The translations under genes and the position numbers were made by a program. 32,000 nucleotides of DNA from Gemmata obscuriglobus. GTDB lineage: Bacteria; Planctomycetota; Planctomycetia; Gemmatales; Gemmataceae. The notes under the pieces are model-generated. The model searched no databases, was not told the DNA's origin, and worked only from the letters and a program-made list of their open reading frames with translations. Shown one piece after another: positions 9,862-27,779 of this stretch (position 1 is its first letter; each line of letters starts with the position of its first letter). Location: assembly GCF_008065095.1 (NCBI RefSeq), contig NZ_CP042911.1, forward strand, positions 900,001 to 932,000, in the 5' to 3' direction.

Positions 9862-11490
9862 TCACGGGCGCTTGCGCCCGCGGATCTGGTTCACCGCGGA
9901 CAGGGCACTGTTGCGGGCGCCGATGTCGTCGGTGGCCTGCGCGAACTGCTCCAGTTCGTTGACCGCGGTCGGGCCGCCCACCTTTAACAGGATGTCGATC
10001 GCGATGAGACGCACGGTCAGGTCGTCGGCGCGTTTCAGCAGCACGAGCCCGGCGGCTTCGGCGTGCGGGCCTCCGATTTCTTCCAGGGCCTGCTTCGCCT
10101 GGTTCGTTTGGCGGTTCGGGCGGCCGATCAGCGATTGCGCCGCCCGGGCCGTTTCGGCGTCCTTCCAGTGCGACAGCAGGCACAGGGCGCGGTACCGCTC
10201 CTCTTCGCTCTGCGACCGGATCGCGTCCAGACACACCTGCCGCGCCTTTGCGTTATTAGGGGTCGTATCCCAGGACACCAGCGCGGCCATCGCGCCGAGC
10301 CGCACCGTCCGGTCCTCGTGTTTGCACAAGCCTTCCAGTTCGACCGCGATTTCGGCCCGGTCGCGGGCGTCGACCGAGTGAATCGTGTCCGACTTTGCCA
10401 GCAGCCCGAGCGTGCGCACCAGCCCGCCGTAATCGCTCCGCTCGCGGTACGTCCGCAACTGGGCGAGCACGGGTTGCGTGGACGGGTCCAGGGGCGTCGG
10501 CCGCGGCTCGGCCTTCGGGGCCAGCGGCTGTGTCAGGTCCGCAACCGCCGGCACGATCAGGGAGAGCGCCACCAGTGCGGCCCCGGTGAGCACGAACCGG
10601 AGCGGCCGCAGCTTCGCGTACTTCTGCTGAAATAGGTAATATGGCGTGATGACCGGGACCGCGCACAGCCGGCCGCGCACGGCACTGCGCATGGCCGTCA
10701 GCCGAACGATCCAGGCATAGCCAAGGGTGATCTGCAGGGCACCGGCCCCCAGCACGACCCACCGGTTCGCCGGCCCGGTGAAAAGTGCGGCAAGGAAGAA
10801 CGCAACGCCCAGACCGGTCAGCAGCATCCACAACGCGGTGGACGGGCGCAGATCGCGACGCGGGGCCGCGCGGGGCTTCATTCGGGCGGTCAACGCGTTC
10901 GTGAGCGCCGCTGCAATATCCGCCTGGGTCTGAAGTTGAACCGGTTCGCTGTACCGGGGCGGCGGGGTATCGCCACCTGTTTGGGGCAACGGGGCTGTCG
11001 GCCGGACTCGTTGCAGCGGCGCAGGCGCCGATTCCCAAGTCGTTTGTGATGGGAGATTTAGCGTCGCAACCGGGGCGTGGCTGGGCTCTTCCTCAATGGC
11101 GGGAGCCTGTTCAAGGGGGGGAGAAACGCGTCCCATCGCGGCAATCGGTTCAGGCTCGCTGTGCGGATGACGCTCAGTTGCCGCGGCAACGGGCTCCATT
11201 TCCGGTTCGCGCACCGGTTCCGGCAACGGCACGTGCGAAGGAGCAGGTGCAGGTTCGGGAACCGTAAGTTGCGGCTCCTGAACGATTTCTCGTTCGGCGG
11301 CCGCGGACACAATCGGTTCCGCTGGCACGTCCAATGTGTGAAGTGGGTCTCCAGTTGCGGTCAACCAGAGGGCGGGATCGGCCGGAATCTGATGGGGCTT
11401 CAGGCACGCTTTGCACACGCTCGCCTGCCCGACACGTCGCTCGTGAACCGCAGTCAGGAGCGAGCAGTGCGGGCAGCGGTACCGAATCAT
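9862..11490 (-). CDS. Zinc-ribbon / multi-TM / HEAT-repeat protein
   Basis: The ATG at 11488-11490 gives MIRYRCPHCSLLTAVHERRVGQASVCKACLKPHQIP (CxxC...CxxC). The track start at 11634 is a TTG. The protein continues with a Pro-rich linker, TM helices (LWMLLTGLGVAFFLAALFTG, VVLGAGALQITLGYAWIV, FVLTGAALVALSLIVPAV) and C-terminal HEAT-like repeats (DRTVRLGAMAALV, ERYRALCLL, DLTVRLIAIDILLKVG). Confidence 0.65.
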   Translation of the reverse strand: MIRYRCPHCSLLTAVHERRVGQASVCKACLKPHQIPADPALWLTATGDPLHTLDVPAEPIVSAAAEREIVQEPQLTVPEPAPAPSHVPLPEPVREPEMEPVAAATERHPHSEPEPIAAMGRVSPPLEQAPAIEEEPSHAPVATLNLPSQTTWESAPAPLQRVRPTAPLPQTGGDTPPPRYSEPVQLQTQADIAAALTNALTARMKPRAAPRRDLRPSTALWMLLTGLGVAFFLAALFTGPANRWVVLGAGALQITLGYAWIVRLTAMRSAVRGRLCAVPVITPYYLFQQKYAKLRPLRFVLTGAALVALSLIVPAVADLTQPLAPKAEPRPTPLDPSTQPVLAQLRTYRERSDYGGLVRTLGLLAKSDTIHSVDARDRAEIAVELEGLCKHEDRTVRLGAMAALVSWDTTPNNAKARQVCLDAIRSQSEEERYRALCLLSHWKDAETARAAQSLIGRPNRQTNQAKQALEEIGGPHAEAAGLVLLKRADDLTVRLIAIDILLKVGGPTAVNELEQFAQATDDIGARNSALSAVNQIRGRKRP

Positions 11491-20148: not shown

Positions 20149-21276
20149 TTATGGCCGCGACGGAATCGGCAGAACGGTGGTGATCTGCGGCACGTCACCC
20201 GGCTTGGGAGCGTCGCCACTCGGCGCAAGCGGCATCGTGTTCGCCGTCGACGGTGCCCCTAACCCCTCCCGCCCCGGGATCGGGAGCGGGCCGTTCGGGA
20301 TCGGCATCATCGGTGCTTGCCCGTTCGGGATCGCGATCGGTGCCGCGCCCCCCAGGATCGGCATCATCGGCGCGGGAGCCGACTGGTTGCGGATCGGTAT
20401 CATCGGCCCCGTCCCGGCCCCGCTCCCGCCCAGCGGAATCGGTGGACCGGATTGCACTACTGTAGGGTTGCCGAACGCACGTGCGTCCGGAGGGAGCAGG
20501 GGCTCGCCTACCCGTTCCTTCGGCACCTTCTCCCACACCTGCGAGCCGAACGGCGCGCTAGTGTCGAACGTGATCGTCGATGCCGGCGAGAACAGCGTCG
20601 GACCGCTCTCCGGGTCGTACCGGGCCGAAATCTTCACCCGCGTGATGTCGGGTTTGTACGTCGGCCACGGCAGGAAGAGCTTGTAGCTCTGCCCGAACGT
20701 TTCGTCACGGGCCTGGAGGTTCCGCAACGTCGCCTTATCAAACTGCCACCGTTCCGGGGTCGCAGGCGACTGGCCCGGCGGTCGCGGACTGTCGTCCACG
20801 AGGTCCACCGTGAGCACCCCGTCGGCCTGCGCGAACTCCATCTTGGACCCGCTGTACAGGAACATATGCCCCACGACGCCGGGGTTCATCCGTCCGTTCT
20901 TCGTCGGGTCCGGAAGGTACGCGATCCGGTTCTGCCAGCCCACTGCGAAATCAGACGCGACGACCTTGCGCTCGAGCTTCGCGCCCAGCTTCGCAAGCGG
21001 GTTCGCTGGGGCAGCAGCCGGCGCCCCGCTCGTGACCGGCGCCGGCGTGGTGGCGGCCACGGGGGCCGTCGCCGACGCCTGCACCACCGGCCCGGGCGCT
21101 CCGCCCCCGCGCGCATCGTCCGTGCGGGTGGTCTCCTGCGGCGGCGGGAGCACCCCGGGCTTCATCACGTCCAACTTCTGGACCTCGGGCTTCTTCCCCT
21201 CCGTTGAGAGGCACCCGGTCCCGATCGCAAGCGCCCCGAGGGCGACTGCGGTCAGCGACGAATATCGTGCACCCAT
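20149..21276 (-). CDS. Lipoprotein of unknown function, translationally coupled to the secretin gene
   Basis: The ATG at 21274-21276 gives MGARYSSLTAVALGALAIGTGC, a lipobox-like LAIGTG/C. This start lies 25 nt inside the 3' end of the secretin ORF, whose stop is at 21252-21254. The C-terminus is Pro/Met/Ile-rich (PMIPI, PMMPI x2). The track ORF extension to 21990 is an off-frame read-through of the secretin gene. Confidence 0.7.
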   Translation of the reverse strand: MGARYSSLTAVALGALAIGTGCLSTEGKKPEVQKLDVMKPGVLPPPQETTRTDDARGGGAPGPVVQASATAPVAATTPAPVTSGAPAAAPANPLAKLGAKLERKVVASDFAVGWQNRIAYLPDPTKNGRMNPGVVGHMFLYSGSKMEFAQADGVLTVDLVDDSPRPPGQSPATPERWQFDKATLRNLQARDETFGQSYKLFLPWPTYKPDITRVKISARYDPESGPTLFSPASTITFDTSAPFGSQVWEKVPKERVGEPLLPPDARAFGNPTVVQSGPPIPLGGSGAGTGPMIPIRNQSAPAPMMPILGGAAPIAIPNGQAPMMPIPNGPLPIPGREGLGAPSTANTMPLAPSGDAPKPGDVPQITTVLPIPSRP

Positions 21277-24200
21277 GACTTCGTGCCCTCCGTGGCGTTG
21301 AGATACGGCTTCTGTTCGACCGGGGAGGCGTCCTTGCCTCGTCCCGGTTCCGGTTGGGTCGGCGCCGCGGCCGGCGGGGCGCTCATGGTGAAGCCGCGGT
21401 TCGGGGCACCCGGAACGGCGGGCGCCGGCGCGGCCGGAACCGGCTGTCCGGGCTGCTGCATCACGTACCCGGCGCCCTGCGGCGCGGCCGGGATTTGCGG
21501 GGCCGCCGGCACCGCCGGCGCGAAGCCGGGTTGCGGGAACGGCGGCGGCGCGAACACCGGCTGCGACGCACTCACCGGCATCACGCCCGAGGACGACGGC
21601 AGTGCCGCACCGGGAGTCCCCGGAAGGGGCACGTTCAGGCCGGGGGCCGGCATTGCCGCCGGTGCCGGCGTCAGCATCGGAGCGGGCTGGGCCGGGAGGA
21701 TCGCCGCCCCGCCGTTCGGCGGCATGACCGTGTTCTGCGGCACCATGCCCGGGGGCACGACCGTTCCGGGTTGCGGCTGCGGGGTTCCGGGCTGGAGCAC
21801 ACCCGTGGCCGCCCCGCCGTCGAGCGGGATCGGAGCGTTGAAGGTGCCGAAGTACGCCGGACCGGGCACGAAGTTGGGCTGGCCCTGCGGCCCGCCGGCC
21901 CCCGTCGGCACCGGGCGGGCGCCCGCCGCCGCCGGTCCCATCACCTCGCCGCCGTGCTTGTGGGTCGCCAGCACTTCCGGCAGGCACCACTTCAGCTTCG
22001 CCGACTCCTCCGCCAGGATGCGGGCGTTGTCGTACTCGCTGCGCACGATGTGCGGGGTCATGATGACCAGGATCTCGCGCCGCTGGACCTGGTGCGTCCG
22101 GTACCGGAACAGCGCCCCCAGGTACGGGATGTCCTTCGCGTACGGGATCCCGACCTCGCTCTTGGTCTCCTGTTTGCTGAGCAGCCCACCGAGCACGATC
22201 GTTTCGCCGTCGGACGCGAGCACGGTGGTCTGCACCGTTTGCGAGTTGAACACCGCCGCCTGGATGCCGCCCACGGCCACCGTGGAGGGCTGTACGCTGG
22301 ACACCGTCGGCTCCACCCGCATCAGCACCTTGCCGTCCGGGCTCACCCGCGGGGTAACCCGCAAGCTGATCCCGATGTCCTGGTACGTGATGCCCTGCTG
22401 GGCCAGGCCGTTGGTGATCGTGGTCGCGGTCGGCACCGGGTAGCTCTGGCCGATGTTCACGTACCCGGTCTGGCTGTCCGCCACCTGGATCTGCGGCCGG
22501 CTCAGCACGTCCACCCGGCCCTGCGCCTTGAGCGCCCGGACCAGGAGCGAGAACGTGTCGTTCGACGCCGAGAACACGAACCCGCCGACCCCTTGCGTGG
22601 GCGACGATCGCCCGACGCCCAGGTTCCCGAGCCCCTGGAACCCGACGATCCCGTTGCCCACGTTGTTACCGGCGGGCAGCGCGGTCGTGGTGTTGAAGTT
22701 CAGCGTCGTCCCGCGGTCGAAGAACACCGGGCTCTGGAGCCCCACCTCGACGCCCAGCTCTTCCGTGTTGTTGAGCTGCACCTCGGCGATGGTCACCTGG
22801 ATCACGACCTGCGGCGGCTGCGCGTCGATCTTGTCGATGATCCGCTTGATCTCGCCGAAGTACTCCGGCGTGGCGCTCACCAGCACGGTGTTGCTCACCG
22901 GCTCGGCGATCACCACCACGCTCCGCTGGAGCTGCTGGAACGCGCTGTTGAACTGCGCCCCGGTGTACACCTGTAGGGCCTGCGTGAAGAACTGCTGCAC
23001 CGAGTTGGCCACATCGGCCGCGGCCGCGTTCCGCAGCTTCACCACCTCGTGGTACCGGTTCTGCACCTGCGACCCCTCCAGCCGCGCGATGACTGCCCGG
23101 ATGGTGTCGAGGTCGTTGAGCGAGCCGGCCACGATGATGCTGTTGGTGCGGTCGTCCACCGACAGCCGCAGGTCGATCAGCGACGCCCCGGCCGACGGGT
23201 CCGAGCTGATCGTCAGCAGCGGCCGCGCCTGGGTGGTGTTCTGCCCGAGCCCCTGGTTCTGGATGCCGGTGGTGGCGGTCCGCCCCTGGCCGGTGAACAA
23301 TTGCGCGATCAGGTTCGCCGTCAGCGTCGCGTCGGCTCCCTGGGACAGCCGGAACACGTTCACGTAGGACCGCGCCGCGGCGACCGTGTCGAGGTTCTCG
23401 ATGAGCGTCTCGATGAGCTTCATCGTCTCGGTCGGGGCCGCGATGATCAGCGAGTTGATCCGGGCGTGCGAGACGATGTGGATGTCCTCGAGGAACCCCG
23501 TCTCGTACGTCTTCCCGTCCCGCGCCGAGTAGAACTTGATCGCGGTCGTCTTGGTGTGCAGCCCGCCGGCGCTGCCGGTCCCGATGGTCGGGATCAGCGC
23601 GTTGATCTGCTGCACCTGGGTGGCGCCGAACTGGCCGGTGGTCTGCCCGATCGCGCCCGGCGTGGCCCCCTGGGTGCCCAGGTTGAACTGGTTACCCTGG
23701 CCGAACTGGTTGGCGCCGCCGCCCTGGTTCGCGGTGATCCCGAACGCCGCCGCACCGCCCTGCAGTTGCGCCTGCGGGCCGGTGAACTGCTGCTGGGCCA
23801 GCGGGTTCAGCACGTTCGACGTCAGCGCCTGGCTCAGCACCTGCCCCAACTCGTCCGACAGCGCGTTCTTCAGCTTGAAGATGCGCATGTCGTTGACCGC
23901 TTTGGACGTCGAGATGTCCATGAGCGTGATCAGGTCTTCGACGTCCTTCAGGTCCCCCGGGGAGCCCTGGACGTACACCGTATTGCTGCTCGTATCAAAC
24001 GTGACCCGGAACTGGTTCTTCGTCTGCGGGTCGCCCGGGTATCGGGTGTTCCAGAAGTTCTGGATCTGGTACGCGACGAGCTGGGCCGACGCCCGCTTGA
24101 GCTGGAACGCCTTGAACGGCGCGCGGTTCGACTGGTCGAACAGCCGCTTCATCTCGTTCTTGGCGTCCTCGAACCGGGCCTCGGGCGCGACCAGTAGGAC

Positions 24201-27200
24201 CGCGTTGAGCCGCGGCAGGGCCAGCGCGGCCACGGCACCCGCGCTGGCTGCACCGGTGTTCTGCCCGAACCCGCCAAAGCCCACGTTGGTACTGCCGACC
24301 CGCGGCCCGGGCAGGTAGCCCCCGTTCTGCCCGAGTTGCACCCGGCCGAACAGCGCGTTGAACTGCTCGGCGACCGTGTTACAGTCGCCGTTCTCCAGCG
24401 TCACGATTTCCACCCGCGGCTGGGTGTTGCGGGCCGTGCGCTGCAGGATCTCGATCAGCTCCAGTACGATCTGGAGGTCTTTGGCGTCCGCGGTGCGGAG
24501 CACGAGCGCGTCGAGCCCCTGGATCGGGATCGCCGTGACGACGCCGCGCGGCGCGGGGCCGGTGTACACGCCGTCCCCGGAGCCCGGAGGCGCGGGAGGT
24601 GTCATCATGGGCGGGGCGCCCGGGATGACCGGCTGCTGCCCGCCGGCCATAACGATGGCGCCGAGCGGGCGGGGCGGAGCCGGGCGGTTGTACCCGAAGT
24701 CCGCCTCGTCGGTTTGCGGGTCGTAGATCGTGTGGACGGCCGAAGGGGCGTCCGTGCCCCGGTAGTCAAAATTTGCGGTCGGCCCTCCGTTGTTCAGGCT
24801 CGCGGTCCGGCCCCCTCGGGCTCCCCCGCCTCCGCCCCCACCTCCGCGGTTACCTCCCCCGCCGGCACCACCTCCGCCTCCGCGGTTACCTCCCCCGCCG
24901 AAGCCGCCGGTGCCACCCCCGCCGAAGCCGCCGGTGCCGCCACCGAATCCACCACCGCCGAACCCACCTGTGCCACCGCCGAAGCCCCCGCCACCGGGGA
25001 ACCCGCCGCCGGTGCCGCCCCCGCCGAAGCCACCGGTGCCACCACCACCGCCGACTCCGCCGCGGCCGCCCTGCTGCCGCGAGTCGATGCCCCGCATCGC
25101 GTTCACGGCCTGCTGCACCACGTTCGGGTCCACGCCCTTCAACTGCACCAGCTTCACCACTTCGGTGGTCGTGACGGTGGCGCTGTCGAGTTGCTCGACC
25201 AGTTCCCGCACGTCGCCGTAGAGCGTTTCCGCGCACAGCAGGATGATGCTGTTACTGCGGTCGTCCACGGAGATCGACAGCGCCGGCGGCTGCTGTTGTT
25301 GCTGCCCGCCACCGCCTTGAAGCGCCGCGGCGAACGGGTTGAACGCCGGCATCGCCCCGACCGCCGCGTTGCGGCCGGTGGTGCCCATCGCGCTGCGGTA
25401 CACGTCCCGCACCACCGTGGCCATCTCCGCCGCGTCCGCGTTCTTCAGCGGGATGATGAACGTCTTGAGCACCGCGGCCGAGTCGTTGACCCCCGCGTCG
25501 ATCGTGCCGCCGAGCAGTTTCTCGATGAGCACCAGATCGACGGGGCTGGCCTTCACCACCACCACCGAGTTGCTGCTCTTCTCGGCGACCACGCGGATGC
25601 GGTCCTTGGACGCCGGGCCGGTGTCACCGCCCCCGCCCAAACCGAGCAGTGCGAGCGGGTTGAGCCCCCCGAACCCGCCACGGCCGCCACCGGGACCGCC
25701 ACCGCCGCCGCGCTGCTGTTGCTGCTGCGGGCCGTTGAAAATCTCGGTCAGTTCGCGGGCGGCATCTTCCGCCGCCACGTACTTCAGGCGGATCACCCGG
25801 AACAGGTTCTCGTCCGGCTTCGCGCCCTCGGTGACGATGTACCGGGCCAGTTGCGACAGCACGTCGAGGGCCGCGGTGTCCTCGCTCTCGATCACCAGCC
25901 GGTTGCCGGCCACGGTGATGACGATCGGCTTGTCTTCCCGCTTGGCCGGGTCCACGACCTGCGCGGCGATCAGGAAGTCCCGCCCCGGGAGCGGCTCACG
26001 CGCCCCGAGGGGCGGCGGCTTGACCGGGGCCGGCAACTTCGGCGGGTCCGCCTTCGGGCGCAGCGGGCTGGAACCCGGGGCCGGGGCCGGGTTCGTCCGC
26101 GGAGCCGGGTTCAGCGGGTCCTGGATGATGACCCGCTTGCCCCGCCCTTCCATCACGCGGCTGAACATCTCCGCGACCGCGGCGGCGTTCGCGCTGCCGC
26201 CCAGGTTGATGGTGCGTGTGGTGCCGCCCAGGCTTGGTGCCACCCCACCCGGCCCGGGGATGCTTGTTTCGCCGAGGAGTTTGAGGGTTTTCTTGGCATC
26301 GGCAATTTGTGCCGGCGTGCCTTTGATCAGTATCCCGACGTTCGGCCCTGTCTTTTGCGCTTCGATCGTCGGCCCACCCGCGGCGGGGGTCGGACTCAAC
26401 TTCGTCAGTTGGGTCGCGGCATCGCCCGGATCGAGATCGTTCAGCGGGATGAAAGTCGTTTCCACGGCCTCGGCGCCGCCGACACCGCCTTCACCGCCGT
26501 TAATGATCTTGGCGATGTCGAGCAGATCCATCGGGGCTGCGAGAACCATGATCTGGTTCTGGGCCGGCAGAGGAATCGCCGTTACCCACGGGAACCGGGT
26601 CTGGATCGTCTTTGCCAGTTCCGCTGCGGACCCGGCCGGCACGCTGAACGATTTCAGCACCGGCTCAGCCGCGACCAGCGGCTTTTGGTCTGGATATAGC
26701 GGTTGGTCCTGTTCTTCGATCAGCTTCTTCGCGAGCCCGATCTTGTCTTGCGGCGCGGTTACCAGGATGGCGTTGCGACGCGTGTCGACAGCGACCTGAA
26801 CGGTTTTGACACGCCCCCCACCGGTAACCGGAGCCGATGGCGTTGCACCGCGGCCACGGTCGCCCCCGCGGTCACCACCACCCGGGCCGCCCCAACCGCC
26901 ACCACCCGGGCCGCCCCAACCGCCACCTCCCGGACCGCCCCAGCCGCCACCCGGGCCGCCCCAGCCGCCCTGACCTTGGGTGCCGGTGACGTCCACCTTG
27001 ACGTCCTGGTTGGTCATCAGTTTCGCCAGCACCTCGGCTAGCTCTTGCGGGCGGCGGTACTTGCAGACGTGAGTCAGGTTGTCTGCTCCGTCCTTCTCCT
27101 CGATATCGCGGAGCGTCTTCTGGATGCGGATGATGTTGCCGACCGTATCCTGCACCAGGTACGAGTTGGGCTGCGTCAGCGGGATCATGGTCCCGAACGG

Positions 27201-27779
27201 GGTGAGCAGCTTCTTCAACTCGTCGATCGAGTCGGTGACCACCATTCCCTTAACCGGCAGCACGATCTGCACGATCTCGGTGCGGCCCCGGCTCGGCAAT
27301 TCGTCCAGGGCGATGCGCGGCAGCAGCGTCGGATCGATTTTTTCGTCGGACGGCTGGATGAAGAACGTCATGTGCCGGCGGATGAGCAGAAACTTCTGCT
27401 GCATCATCGCCTCGTTGATGAGGTCGGTGACCTCGCCGATGGTGAACTTTTTGTCCTTGCCGGGCTTGATGGCGACGGTGCCGGTGGGCTTGACGGTCGT
27501 GATGAGCGTCAGTCCGGTTTCCTTGGCGTACCAGTCGAGGACCTCGTCCCAGCCGGCCTTCTCGAAGTGGATGCTGACCAACTTCTCGGCAGGCGCCGCC
27601 GGCGCGGTCGGCGCGACGGCCCCGGGCTTGCCGGGCGCGGGCATCGGCTGCGCGAGCACCATGTCCACGGGGCCAGCCAACCCGGCCGCGGCGGCGAGCA
27701 CGCCGGGGAGCCATTTGCGGAGCTTCAGGAGCTTCCAGACCGGAACCGCTCTCAGCCGGTTCCCGTGACGCGGAGCCAT
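21252..27779 (-). CDS. Giant secretin (GspD/PilQ superfamily), 2175 aa
   Basis: ATG start. The signal-like N-terminus is WLPGVLAAAAGLAGPVDMVLAQP. The canonical C-terminal secretin core (about 22040-22818) reads PPQVVIQVTIAEVQLNNTEELGVEVG...VDVLSRPQIQVADSQTGYVNIGQSYPV...ITYQDIGISLRVTPRVSPDGKVLMRVEPTVSSV...TTVLASDGETIVLGGLL...IPYLGALFRYRTHQVQRREILVIMTPHIVRS. It is preceded by about 12-13 Secretin_N-like repeats, identified by manual pattern reading only. Confidence 0.9.
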   Translation of the reverse strand: MAPRHGNRLRAVPVWKLLKLRKWLPGVLAAAAGLAGPVDMVLAQPMPAPGKPGAVAPTAPAAPAEKLVSIHFEKAGWDEVLDWYAKETGLTLITTVKPTGTVAIKPGKDKKFTIGEVTDLINEAMMQQKFLLIRRHMTFFIQPSDEKIDPTLLPRIALDELPSRGRTEIVQIVLPVKGMVVTDSIDELKKLLTPFGTMIPLTQPNSYLVQDTVGNIIRIQKTLRDIEEKDGADNLTHVCKYRRPQELAEVLAKLMTNQDVKVDVTGTQGQGGWGGPGGGWGGPGGGGWGGPGGGGWGGPGGGDRGGDRGRGATPSAPVTGGGRVKTVQVAVDTRRNAILVTAPQDKIGLAKKLIEEQDQPLYPDQKPLVAAEPVLKSFSVPAGSAAELAKTIQTRFPWVTAIPLPAQNQIMVLAAPMDLLDIAKIINGGEGGVGGAEAVETTFIPLNDLDPGDAATQLTKLSPTPAAGGPTIEAQKTGPNVGILIKGTPAQIADAKKTLKLLGETSIPGPGGVAPSLGGTTRTINLGGSANAAAVAEMFSRVMEGRGKRVIIQDPLNPAPRTNPAPAPGSSPLRPKADPPKLPAPVKPPPLGAREPLPGRDFLIAAQVVDPAKREDKPIVITVAGNRLVIESEDTAALDVLSQLARYIVTEGAKPDENLFRVIRLKYVAAEDAARELTEIFNGPQQQQQRGGGGGPGGGRGGFGGLNPLALLGLGGGGDTGPASKDRIRVVAEKSSNSVVVVKASPVDLVLIEKLLGGTIDAGVNDSAAVLKTFIIPLKNADAAEMATVVRDVYRSAMGTTGRNAAVGAMPAFNPFAAALQGGGGQQQQQPPALSISVDDRSNSIILLCAETLYGDVRELVEQLDSATVTTTEVVKLVQLKGVDPNVVQQAVNAMRGIDSRQQGGRGGVGGGGGTGGFGGGGTGGGFPGGGGFGGGTGGFGGGGFGGGTGGFGGGGTGGFGGGGNRGGGGGAGGGGNRGGGGGGGGARGGRTASLNNGGPTANFDYRGTDAPSAVHTIYDPQTDEADFGYNRPAPPRPLGAIVMAGGQQPVIPGAPPMMTPPAPPGSGDGVYTGPAPRGVVTAIPIQGLDALVLRTADAKDLQIVLELIEILQRTARNTQPRVEIVTLENGDCNTVAEQFNALFGRVQLGQNGGYLPGPRVGSTNVGFGGFGQNTGAASAGAVAALALPRLNAVLLVAPEARFEDAKNEMKRLFDQSNRAPFKAFQLKRASAQLVAYQIQNFWNTRYPGDPQTKNQFRVTFDTSSNTVYVQGSPGDLKDVEDLITLMDISTSKAVNDMRIFKLKNALSDELGQVLSQALTSNVLNPLAQQQFTGPQAQLQGGAAAFGITANQGGGANQFGQGNQFNLGTQGATPGAIGQTTGQFGATQVQQINALIPTIGTGSAGGLHTKTTAIKFYSARDGKTYETGFLEDIHIVSHARINSLIIAAPTETMKLIETLIENLDTVAAARSYVNVFRLSQGADATLTANLIAQLFTGQGRTATTGIQNQGLGQNTTQARPLLTISSDPSAGASLIDLRLSVDDRTNSIIVAGSLNDLDTIRAVIARLEGSQVQNRYHEVVKLRNAAAADVANSVQQFFTQALQVYTGAQFNSAFQQLQRSVVVIAEPVSNTVLVSATPEYFGEIKRIIDKIDAQPPQVVIQVTIAEVQLNNTEELGVEVGLQSPVFFDRGTTLNFNTTTALPAGNNVGNGIVGFQGLGNLGVGRSSPTQGVGGFVFSASNDTFSLLVRALKAQGRVDVLSRPQIQVADSQTGYVNIGQSYPVPTATTITNGLAQQGITYQDIGISLRVTPRVSPDGKVLMRVEPTVSSVQPSTVAVGGIQAAVFNSQTVQTTVLASDGETIVLGGLLSKQETKSEVGIPYAKDIPYLGALFRYRTHQVQRREILVIMTPHIVRSEYDNARILAEESAKLKWCLPEVLATHKHGGEVMGPAAAGARPVPTGAGGPQGQPNFVPGPAYFGTFNAPIPLDGGAATGVLQPGTPQPQPGTVVPPGMVPQNTVMPPNGGAAILPAQPAPMLTPAPAAMPAPGLNVPLPGTPGAALPSSSGVMPVSASQPVFAPPPFPQPGFAPAVPAAPQIPAAPQGAGYVMQQPGQPVPAAPAPAVPGAPNRGFTMSAPPAAAPTQPEPGRGKDASPVEQKPYLNATEGTKSWVHDIRR

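Follow-up and report, generated by a model that had tools for sequence, protein, structure and literature searches.

The longest gene of a 32-kb window of the Gemmata obscuriglobus chromosome (the window being the whole stretch of DNA analysed, 68% G+C, from a single 9.0-Mb contig) encodes a giant secretin of 2175 amino acids (aa), and one of its periplasmic N domains carries an 88-residue tract dominated by glycine, with phenylalanine and arginine. This tract is a translated, selectively maintained segment located at the canonical variable site of secretin N domains.

Architecture of the giant secretin

21252..27779 (-): giant secretin gene, 2175 aa; N0, 13 N-domain units of β-α-β-β-α order, secretin domain (aa 1749-1913) and a Pro/Ala-rich C-terminal tail

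Pfam recognises the Secretin family (PF00263) at full model length over aa 1749-1913 with 153.6 bits, together with seven Secretin_N (PF03958) stretches. With the NCBIfam GspD equivalog TIGR02517 the protein reaches 431.3 bits, the cut-off being 351.35, and under the PilQ, SctC and MshL models it scores below the cut-off of each. Furthermore, it aligns to PulD 264-594 with an E value of 1e-38. The protein is a GspD-type secretin.

A first AlphaFold2 model of aa 655-1300, computed with 44 orthologues as the alignment, gave a mean predicted local distance difference test score (pLDDT) of 64, with the folded parts at 80-93, and contains five consecutive β-α-[loop]-β-β-α units. A second model of aa 60-660 contains N0 and five further N-domain units, giving N0 and ten units over aa 60-1300. 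Three more units were read from the sequence pattern ahead of the secretin domain, the last of them aligning to PulD N3. Because a PDB sequence search with aa 655-1300 returned only low-complexity matches (mS86 and designed GGGGS linkers), recognition of the N domains relies on the fold search, where the best Foldseek matches of the modelled units were the N domains of ExeD, EpsD, GspD, XcpQ and PulD. Models, PulD alignment and sequence pattern together place the tract in unit 8 of 13, with units 9-13 between it and the secretin domain. The tract ring is the sixth below the outer-membrane barrel, that is, mid-stack and not the secretin-proximal N3.

Stacked N-domain rings also lengthen the periplasmic channel of other multi-ring secretins, such as Thermus thermophilus PilQ and PulD/GspD with their N0-N3 domains. 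However, these have 4-6 periplasmic domains against 14 in the Gemmata protein, in which, unlike PilQ and PulD/GspD, at least six or seven periplasmic domains carry low-complexity loops.

Sequence and predicted anatomy of the loop

Residues 902-990 of the secretin read QQGGRGGVGGGGGTGGFGGGG...NRGGGGGGGGARGG. The translation given by the first-pass annotation for 24812-25070 is borne out letter for letter, these coordinates corresponding to G904-G990. We set the boundaries of the tract at G904-R991 (24807-25070, minus strand), 88 residues. Unit 8 is built as follows.

25071..25160 (-): strand 1 and helix 1 of N-domain unit 8, aa 874-903, VVKLVQLKGVDPNVVQQAVNAMRGIDSRQQ; AlphaFold2 places a strand at aa 874-879 and helices at aa 885-895 and 900-904
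24888..25070 (-): aromatic/Gly block, aa 904-964; seven Phe in GGFGGGG(T) units, Gly 46/61, pLDDT 32-41
24807..24887 (-): Arg/Gly block, aa 965-991, NRGGGGGAGGGGNRGGGGGGGGARGGR
24684..24773 (-): acidic short motif, aa 1003-1032, NFDYRGTDAPSAVHTIYDPQTDEADFGYNR; conserved, inside the predicted disordered loop
24549..24683 (-): Pro-rich variable remainder of the loop, aa 1033-1077; pLDDT < 50
24429..24548 (-): strands 2 and 3 and helix 2 of unit 8, closing the loop, aa 1078-1117; AlphaFold2 strands at aa 1081-1086 and 1091-1096 and helix at aa 1099-1117, pLDDT 83-87

Glycine accounts for 65 of the 88 residues (74%), followed by 7 Phe, 5 Arg, 5 Thr, 2 Asn, 2 Ala, 1 Val and 1 Pro, and aa 904-991 contain no Asp, Glu or Lys. 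The Phe residues are spaced by 5-8 residues, more evenly than in all 500 shuffles, and the RG motifs of aa 905-991 (GRGG, NRGG twice, and ARGGR) adjoin the Phe block. A short linker leads from the Arg/Gly block to the acidic motif, whose letters are NFDYRGTDAPSAVHTIYDPQTDEAD... and whose pattern is (N)FDYRG.DAPSA...YDP..D. This motif belongs to no Pfam family, is unfolded in the AlphaFold2 monomer and docks on no domain of it; it is likely to be a docking motif for a partner. The Pro-rich stretch that follows has about 25% Pro and is near-neutral and 23-84 residues long across the 44 orthologues.

In the AlphaFold2 model aa 905-1080 (176 residues) have pLDDT values of 32-49 and lie between the helix of aa 885-904 and the strand of aa 1081-1086, the block of strand 1 and helix 1 having values of 67-84. 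The 88-residue tract is predicted to be the opening part of this intrinsically disordered loop of 176 residues. The model agrees with the earlier placement of the tract between the first helix of an N-domain unit and the strand that follows it. This helix 1-strand 2 loop is a known variable site of secretin N domains, for which both the site and the disorder are already known.

FG dipeptides occur at aa 918, 933, 940, 945, 952, 960 and 1028. The composition had been compared with eukaryotic FG and RGG tracts, and as a description of composition this likeness holds, with 7 FG in 128 residues and an aromatic-then-Arg layout that is present in 44/44 orthologues.

The tract in independent assemblies and in the genome

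Records of the identical protein exist for 4 contigs from several sources, and the same tract length is found in an independent Logan assembly (P0122) and in two Gemmata algarum genomes. An assembly artefact is ruled out by the identical tract in independent assemblies. Short-read assemblies do break at the Gly/Phe tract: in scaffold HG799465.1 of Gemmata sp. IIL30 (L011, about 10,800-11,300) a run of N falls exactly at the Gly/Phe tract of the orthologue, and downstream of this gap the translation is out of frame and W/R-rich.

A scan of the 9.0-Mb genome gave 12 coding-like open reading frame (ORF) segments that reach 55% Gly over 40 residues, two of which belong to the giant secretin itself. 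The tract ranks second in length among the 12, and no other long one contains both Phe and Arg. It is no product of chance, and with only 12 such tracts genome-wide, a genome-wide filler motif is ruled out. The six other secretin-domain ORFs of the genome are without a comparable tract.

Conservation and purifying selection

A protein search returned 328 relatives of 1,200-3,800 aa. The best 120 of these 328 are nearly all 1,940-2,430 aa long, their sources being Gemmata, Urbifossiella, Fimbriiglobus, Tuwongella and Gemmataceae metagenome bins; a genome scan showed that Limnoglobus and Frigoriglobus also carry relatives. The genome itself has Gemmata algarum JC673 and Gemmata sp. JC717 as its closest named relatives. 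When 44 orthologues (39-96% identity) were aligned, the insert between the invariant G897 and F1004 was found in every sequence, with 62-140 residues. The repeat unit is lineage-specific (GGTGGFGGG, GGQGGFGGG, GFPGLGGGG, NPFGGGG, GNFGG, SPFGGGG, GGFQPGGGG) and becomes Tyr- or Met-rich in the most distant members. The inserts have on average 62% Gly, with 3-12 aromatics, 2-8 Arg and hardly any acidic residues. The aromatics are N-terminal to the Arg residues in 44/44 orthologues, and the loop keeps the order aromatic/Gly, Arg/Gly, acidic motif, Pro-rich. Irrespective of its length, the tract carries a net charge of +4 to +7 (mean 5.5, sd 0.8), and the next ~32 residues are net negative in 38/44 orthologues, with a median of -4. 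Within the acidic motif F1004 and P1021 are invariant, and P1012 and D1020 are kept in at least 90% of the sequences.

Comparison with G. algarum JC717 and JC673 (~93% protein identity) revealed 21 and 20 synonymous changes, respectively, a single non-synonymous one (V910F) and no indel in the 88 codons. The whole gene shows 240 synonymous and 155 non-synonymous changes against G. algarum (Fisher p = 2e-4 for the contrast with the tract). The tract is under purifying selection at the amino-acid level. Its Gly codons are GGC 30, GGT 16, GGG 10 and GGA 9, against 93, 17, 64 and 10, respectively, in the rest of the gene; GGT and GGA together thus make up 38% of the Gly codons in the tract and 15% elsewhere (p = 2e-4), and this mixed codon usage lowers the repetitiveness of the DNA.

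The first-pass annotation had also described the tract as a series of near-identical DNA units prone to slippage and length variation. The unit ccgccgaagccRccggtgcc is indeed enriched, with three exact copies and one with 2 mismatches against 0.09 expected, but the repeats are short: Tandem Repeats Finder reports 2-3 copies with periods of 18, 24 and 36 nt, and no exact repeat is longer than 24 nt. The expected length variation was not found, since four Gemmata sequences at 93-100% identity have no tract indel despite 20-21 synonymous changes. A tract that is stable in length and under purifying selection contradicts slippage-driven polymorphism; it is another tract of the same protein, formed by GWGGPGGG repeats, that varies instead. 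Over longer times concerted repeat turnover is seen, with Thr spacers in G. obscuriglobus and Gln in Gemmata sp. G18 at lengths of 106 and 107 residues.

These data bear on the idea that the tract is a functionless low-complexity expansion at a permissive loop, generated by slippage of GGN repeats in a genome of 68% G+C. In its favour, part of the DNA is repetitive, variation is known to be tolerated at the site, and the change of repeat type between genera (GGTGGF, GGQGGF, GFPGLGGGG, NPFGGGG, GNFGG) points to repeat turnover. However, the 21:1 ratio of synonymous to non-synonymous changes without indels between species at 93% identity, the presence, order and charge kept in 44/44 orthologues, the diversified Gly codons of the tract (p = 2e-4) and the other secretins of the genome, which lack such a tract, all argue against it, and we consider a functionless expansion highly improbable.

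A second alternative concerns the acidic motif. The Gly-rich and Pro-rich flanks may serve as a flexible leash that lets the motif (N)FDYRG.DAPSA...YDP reach a partner, for which another ring, the 375-aa protein encoded downstream, an inner-membrane component or a cargo are candidates. The motif is the only sequence-conserved part of the loop, F1004 and P1021 being invariant, its flanks vary in length (59-137 and 23-84 residues), and the downstream gene is conserved, overlapping the secretin stop codon, in three other genomes. Nevertheless, evenly placed aromatics, an Arg block in fixed order and a charge of +4 to +7 would be superfluous for a pure leash, as would the near-perfect amino-acid conservation over 88 codons despite 21 synonymous changes, and AlphaFold2 docks the acidic motif on no domain of the monomer. 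We consider a role as a leash unlikely.

Contigs of Verrucomicrobiota/Limisphaerales (L062, L065, L066, L069-L071, L075-L077, L082) contain ORFs of 3,766-4,311 aa with a secretin domain at their end. These ORFs are about twice as large as the Gemmata protein, and the eight checked have almost no low-complexity loops. One Gemmataceae bin (SMAG_U9811; L012, L037) has two giant secretin ORFs, presumably paralogues, one with the aromatic/Gly/Arg loop and the other (L012) 32% identical and with Pro/Gln/Gly-rich loops elsewhere. In this loop-poor L012 protein the anchor motifs on either side of the tract did not turn up. As the tract is absent from the Verrucomicrobial giants that were checked and from the presumed Gemmataceae paralogue, it is ruled out as a requirement of any long N-domain stack.

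Loops at the same site in other secretins

Secretins are thought to be gated by folded β-hairpin gates, and the disordered loop of their N domains has counted as a minor and unresolved detail. In the Gemmata protein this minor loop is enlarged, constant in composition and charge, and under purifying selection.

By alignment to the Gemmata protein, PulD 288-303 is the same helix 1-strand 2 loop. The InvG loop 217-267 was first proposed as a periplasmic constriction, and later, in the state with a needle filling the lumen, was seen to run outwards between N3 and N1, stabilising the N domains (PMC6155069). In f1 pIV a disordered N3 loop is directed into the middle of the pore (PMC8563730), and in Deinococcus radiodurans GspD a stretch of 59 residues in N3 is unresolved and a constriction is related to N3 (PMC10828601). 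The Gemmata loop shares with these variable N3 insertions the site, the disorder or lack of resolved structure, and the presence of one copy per subunit round the ring, the N3 type being tied to a constriction of the channel. It differs in length (176 residues against ~15-60), in its position mid-stack, sixth below the barrel, where the known insertions are in N3, and in its design, with a 74%-Gly tract of 88 residues, ordered Phe and Arg blocks and a conserved acidic motif. Furthermore, inserts of a similar kind recur in several rings of the Gemmata protein, unlike the single N3 insertion.

Volume of the loops and a possible plug

In order to estimate volumes we used a lumen diameter of 67-77 Å, as in published secretins, an assumed ring height of 30-35 Å and 15 copies. 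Calculated in this way, 15 tracts would take up 68-104% of the lumen of one ring and 15 whole loops 163-252%, and all the loops listed in this study together about 37% of a 13-ring lumen. The suggestion of a sieve made in the first-pass annotation becomes doubtful on these volumes, the fifteen tracts alone needing about 70-100% of the ring lumen and the whole loops 160-250%. With the ring lumen nearly full, a dense plug or collar would fit better than a dilute sieve, provided that the loops are luminal.

We tentatively infer an orientation towards the lumen, cohesion and a plug function, whereby the loops may form a soft, cohesive and dense collar or plug at one level of the periplasmic conduit; taken as a whole, this reading is the one we prefer, though it is possible rather than probable. 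The build would be that of stickers and spacers, with evenly placed Phe and then Arg in a Gly matrix devoid of acidic residues, followed by the acidic motif. The 12-15 copies around one ring would cohere by Phe-Phe, Arg-Phe and Arg-acidic motif contacts, leading to a soft, dense and self-healing collar or plug in the conduit. Such a plug would amount to a larger form of the 'N3 constriction' made by this loop in PulD, GspD and InvG, and would spread over the neighbouring tiers if luminal. The passage of a pseudopilus, a pilus or a cargo would displace it, the loops probably slipping out between rings in the manner of the InvG loop; since little of the ring lumen is left free by 15 copies, any passage would require the plug to be pushed aside.

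Several points weigh against a plug. The orientation towards the lumen rests on homology with N3, and the unit that carries the tract is mid-stack; in needle-bearing InvG the equivalent loop lies outside the lumen (PMC6155069). The 163-252% of the ring lumen needed by fifteen whole loops means that at least part of them must lie elsewhere. The almost pure Gly spacers are unlike those of nucleoporin FG domains, the adjacent conserved motif could mean that selection acts partly on tethering rather than on the tract itself, and the Verrucomicrobial secretin-domain ORFs that were checked manage without such loops.

A third alternative is an outer or inter-ring 'Velcro', in which the loops would leave the lumen between rings and glue subunits and rings together, seal lateral gaps of the long stack, or fasten the stack to peptidoglycan or nearby envelope proteins. 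The needle-bound InvG loop, with its outward path between N3 and N1 and its stabilising effect on the N domains, speaks for this arrangement, as does the excess of the whole loops over the lumen of their own ring. Seven loops of the protein have low-complexity inserts, as a stack-wide structural role predicts, and a cationic block beside an acidic block would suit head-to-tail contacts between neighbours. On the other hand, Verrucomicrobial ORFs of 3,766-4,311 aa almost without low-complexity loops indicate that long stacks need none, the loop anchors face the channel in three secretin classes, and no peptidoglycan-binding motif or family was found with Pfam. We consider this arrangement conceivable but somewhat doubtful.

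If the plug proposal is true, with cohesive loops facing the channel, a bacterial channel would be closed by a disordered polymer phase, a principle so far associated with the nuclear pore, and there would be a concrete candidate for how a 40-nm conduit stays sealed. The protein is long enough to span the enlarged planctomycete periplasm. The glue between rings and the leash would also be new functions for N-domain loops of secretins.

Comparison with FG nucleoporins and Gly-rich cohesive proteins

The tract has in common with FG nucleoporins (GLFG and FG types) many FG dipeptides, disorder, an essentially uncharged aromatic block and many copies round a ring-shaped channel, the copies being predicted in the Gemmata case. 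One of the other loops of the protein (aa 1327-1405) also has Gln/Asn/Thr-rich spacers and QFG motifs, as in FG nucleoporins. However, there is no Nucleoporin_FG match, Pfam giving only Secretin_N and Secretin at E <= 0.01 for the protein. The spacers of the tract are ~75% Gly in place of the polar Ser/Thr/Asn/Gln spacers of FG nucleoporins, and an Arg-rich block follows. The setting is periplasmic, with no known transport receptors, and by calculation the packing would be far denser than that of nucleoporin FG domains.

A 77-residue Gly-rich tick protein with periodic Arg and aromatics phase-separates and gels through cation-π and π-π contacts (PMC11794139), which offers a material precedent for the proposed cohesion. 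This tick cement protein, GRP77, and RGG/GAR boxes of glycine-rich RNA-binding proteins such as mS86 are similar to the tract in size and composition, with aromatics and Arg recurring periodically among the Gly residues. Among PDB sequences mS86 matches best, through its GGFARRGGYGGGRGG Gly/Arg/aromatic tail, and the tract fits an RGG/GAR box in its clustered RGG/RG repeats with aromatics. Pfam and NCBIfam find no RNA- or DNA-binding domain in the host secretin, which is a channel exported to the outer membrane, so that the nucleic-acid-binding character of RGG/GAR proteins is missing. Arg and aromatics stand in two separate blocks in the Gemmata tract, whereas they are interleaved in tick GRP77 and RGG proteins, and the Gemmata segment is a loop anchored at both ends in an oligomeric ring, without nucleic-acid context, unlike the free chain of the GRP/RGG type.

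In the literature on secretins, Planctomycetes, Gemmata and crateriform structures we found no description of the giant secretin or of such loops. Neither the T. immobilis proteome paper nor a 2025 review mentions the secretin, and the FG-containing β-barrel protein mentioned in the paper on 'pore-like structures' of Gemmata is a different protein. The features that we did not find described are the length of the loop, the ordered arrangement of Phe, Arg and acidic parts in it, how strictly it is conserved, its place in the middle of the stack and the fact that it recurs in several rings.

Other inserts of the secretin

26808..26978 (-): GWGGPGGG repeats and DRGG units, aa 268-324, unit 2; disordered in AlphaFold2 between the helix of aa 244-255 and the strand of aa 327-332
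25596..25733 (-): insert QQQQQRGGGGGPGGGRGGFGG...GLGGGG, aa 683-728, helix 1-strand 2 loop of unit 6 (AlphaFold2)
23565..23801 (-): Gln/Gly/Asn/Thr-rich loop, aa 1327-1405, in a later N-domain unit assigned from the sequence pattern

The earlier claim that the inserts share one structural position is supported by AlphaFold2 for the GWGGPGGG repeats (aa 268-324) and for the QQQQQRGG... insert (aa 683-728), both located in helix 1-strand 2 loops. According to AlphaFold2 a Pro-rich insert at aa 561-611 also occupies the helix 1-strand 2 loop of its own unit. The QQQQQRGG... insert is unchanged in four Gemmata sequences, and the GWGGPGGG tract differs by whole units among near-identical sequences. 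A Logan assembly that is otherwise 100% identical has one 8-residue GWGGPGGG unit fewer, and the G. algarum strains differ again; these length differences may be either a real polymorphism or a collapse in short-read assembly. The uncharged loop of aa 1327-1405 contains AFG, NQFG and GQFG motifs (FG at 1346, 1359 and 1384), and is nearer to the spacers of GLFG nucleoporins than is the Gly tract.

Genomic neighbourhood and candidate complexes

20149-21276 (-): gene for a protein of 375 aa, overlapping the secretin stop codon; no Pfam family

The 375-aa gene is kept in the same position in G. algarum (two strains) and in Gemmata sp. G18, and its product is a candidate for a partner or for a pilotin. 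The 32-kb window contains no gsp or pil gene. The nearest pilus or type II machinery to this orphan secretin is a cluster about 36 kb from it (G000:C1:873297-885289, 15-27 kb upstream of the window start), which encodes two GspE/PilB-like ATPases along with a PilT-like ATPase, a PilC/GspF-like protein and a product whose N-terminus is of the prepilin type.

The crateriform structures of planctomycetes are unidentified outer-membrane complexes that are joined to the cytoplasmic membrane and bear fibres (PMC5394234), and they are still unexplained (PMC12673574). The 14-tier secretin is a reasonable candidate for their core, which gives these complexes a named candidate protein. A bolder proposal, that in Gemmataceae several tiers of cohesive aromatic/Gly/Arg and Gln/Asn-FG loops line the conduit of a 14-tier secretin of ~3 MDa and make it an independently evolved counterpart of the nuclear-pore barrier as well as the crateriform core, and perhaps the plugged 'pore-like' complexes of Gemmata membrane preparations, would in our view be improbable.

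Other Gly/Phe-rich segments of the genome

Two further proteins of the genome contain segments of related appearance. A 1,704-aa protein of the alpha-2-macroglobulin family, with A2M, bait-region, TED and MG10 domains, has a GGFGGG/GGIGGG segment (G000:C1:8392758-8392934, minus strand) between its bait-region domain and its A2M domain. An exported CotH-family protein (G000:C1:4599121-4599258, plus strand) has several low-complexity segments of GGFGG and GGFPGG.

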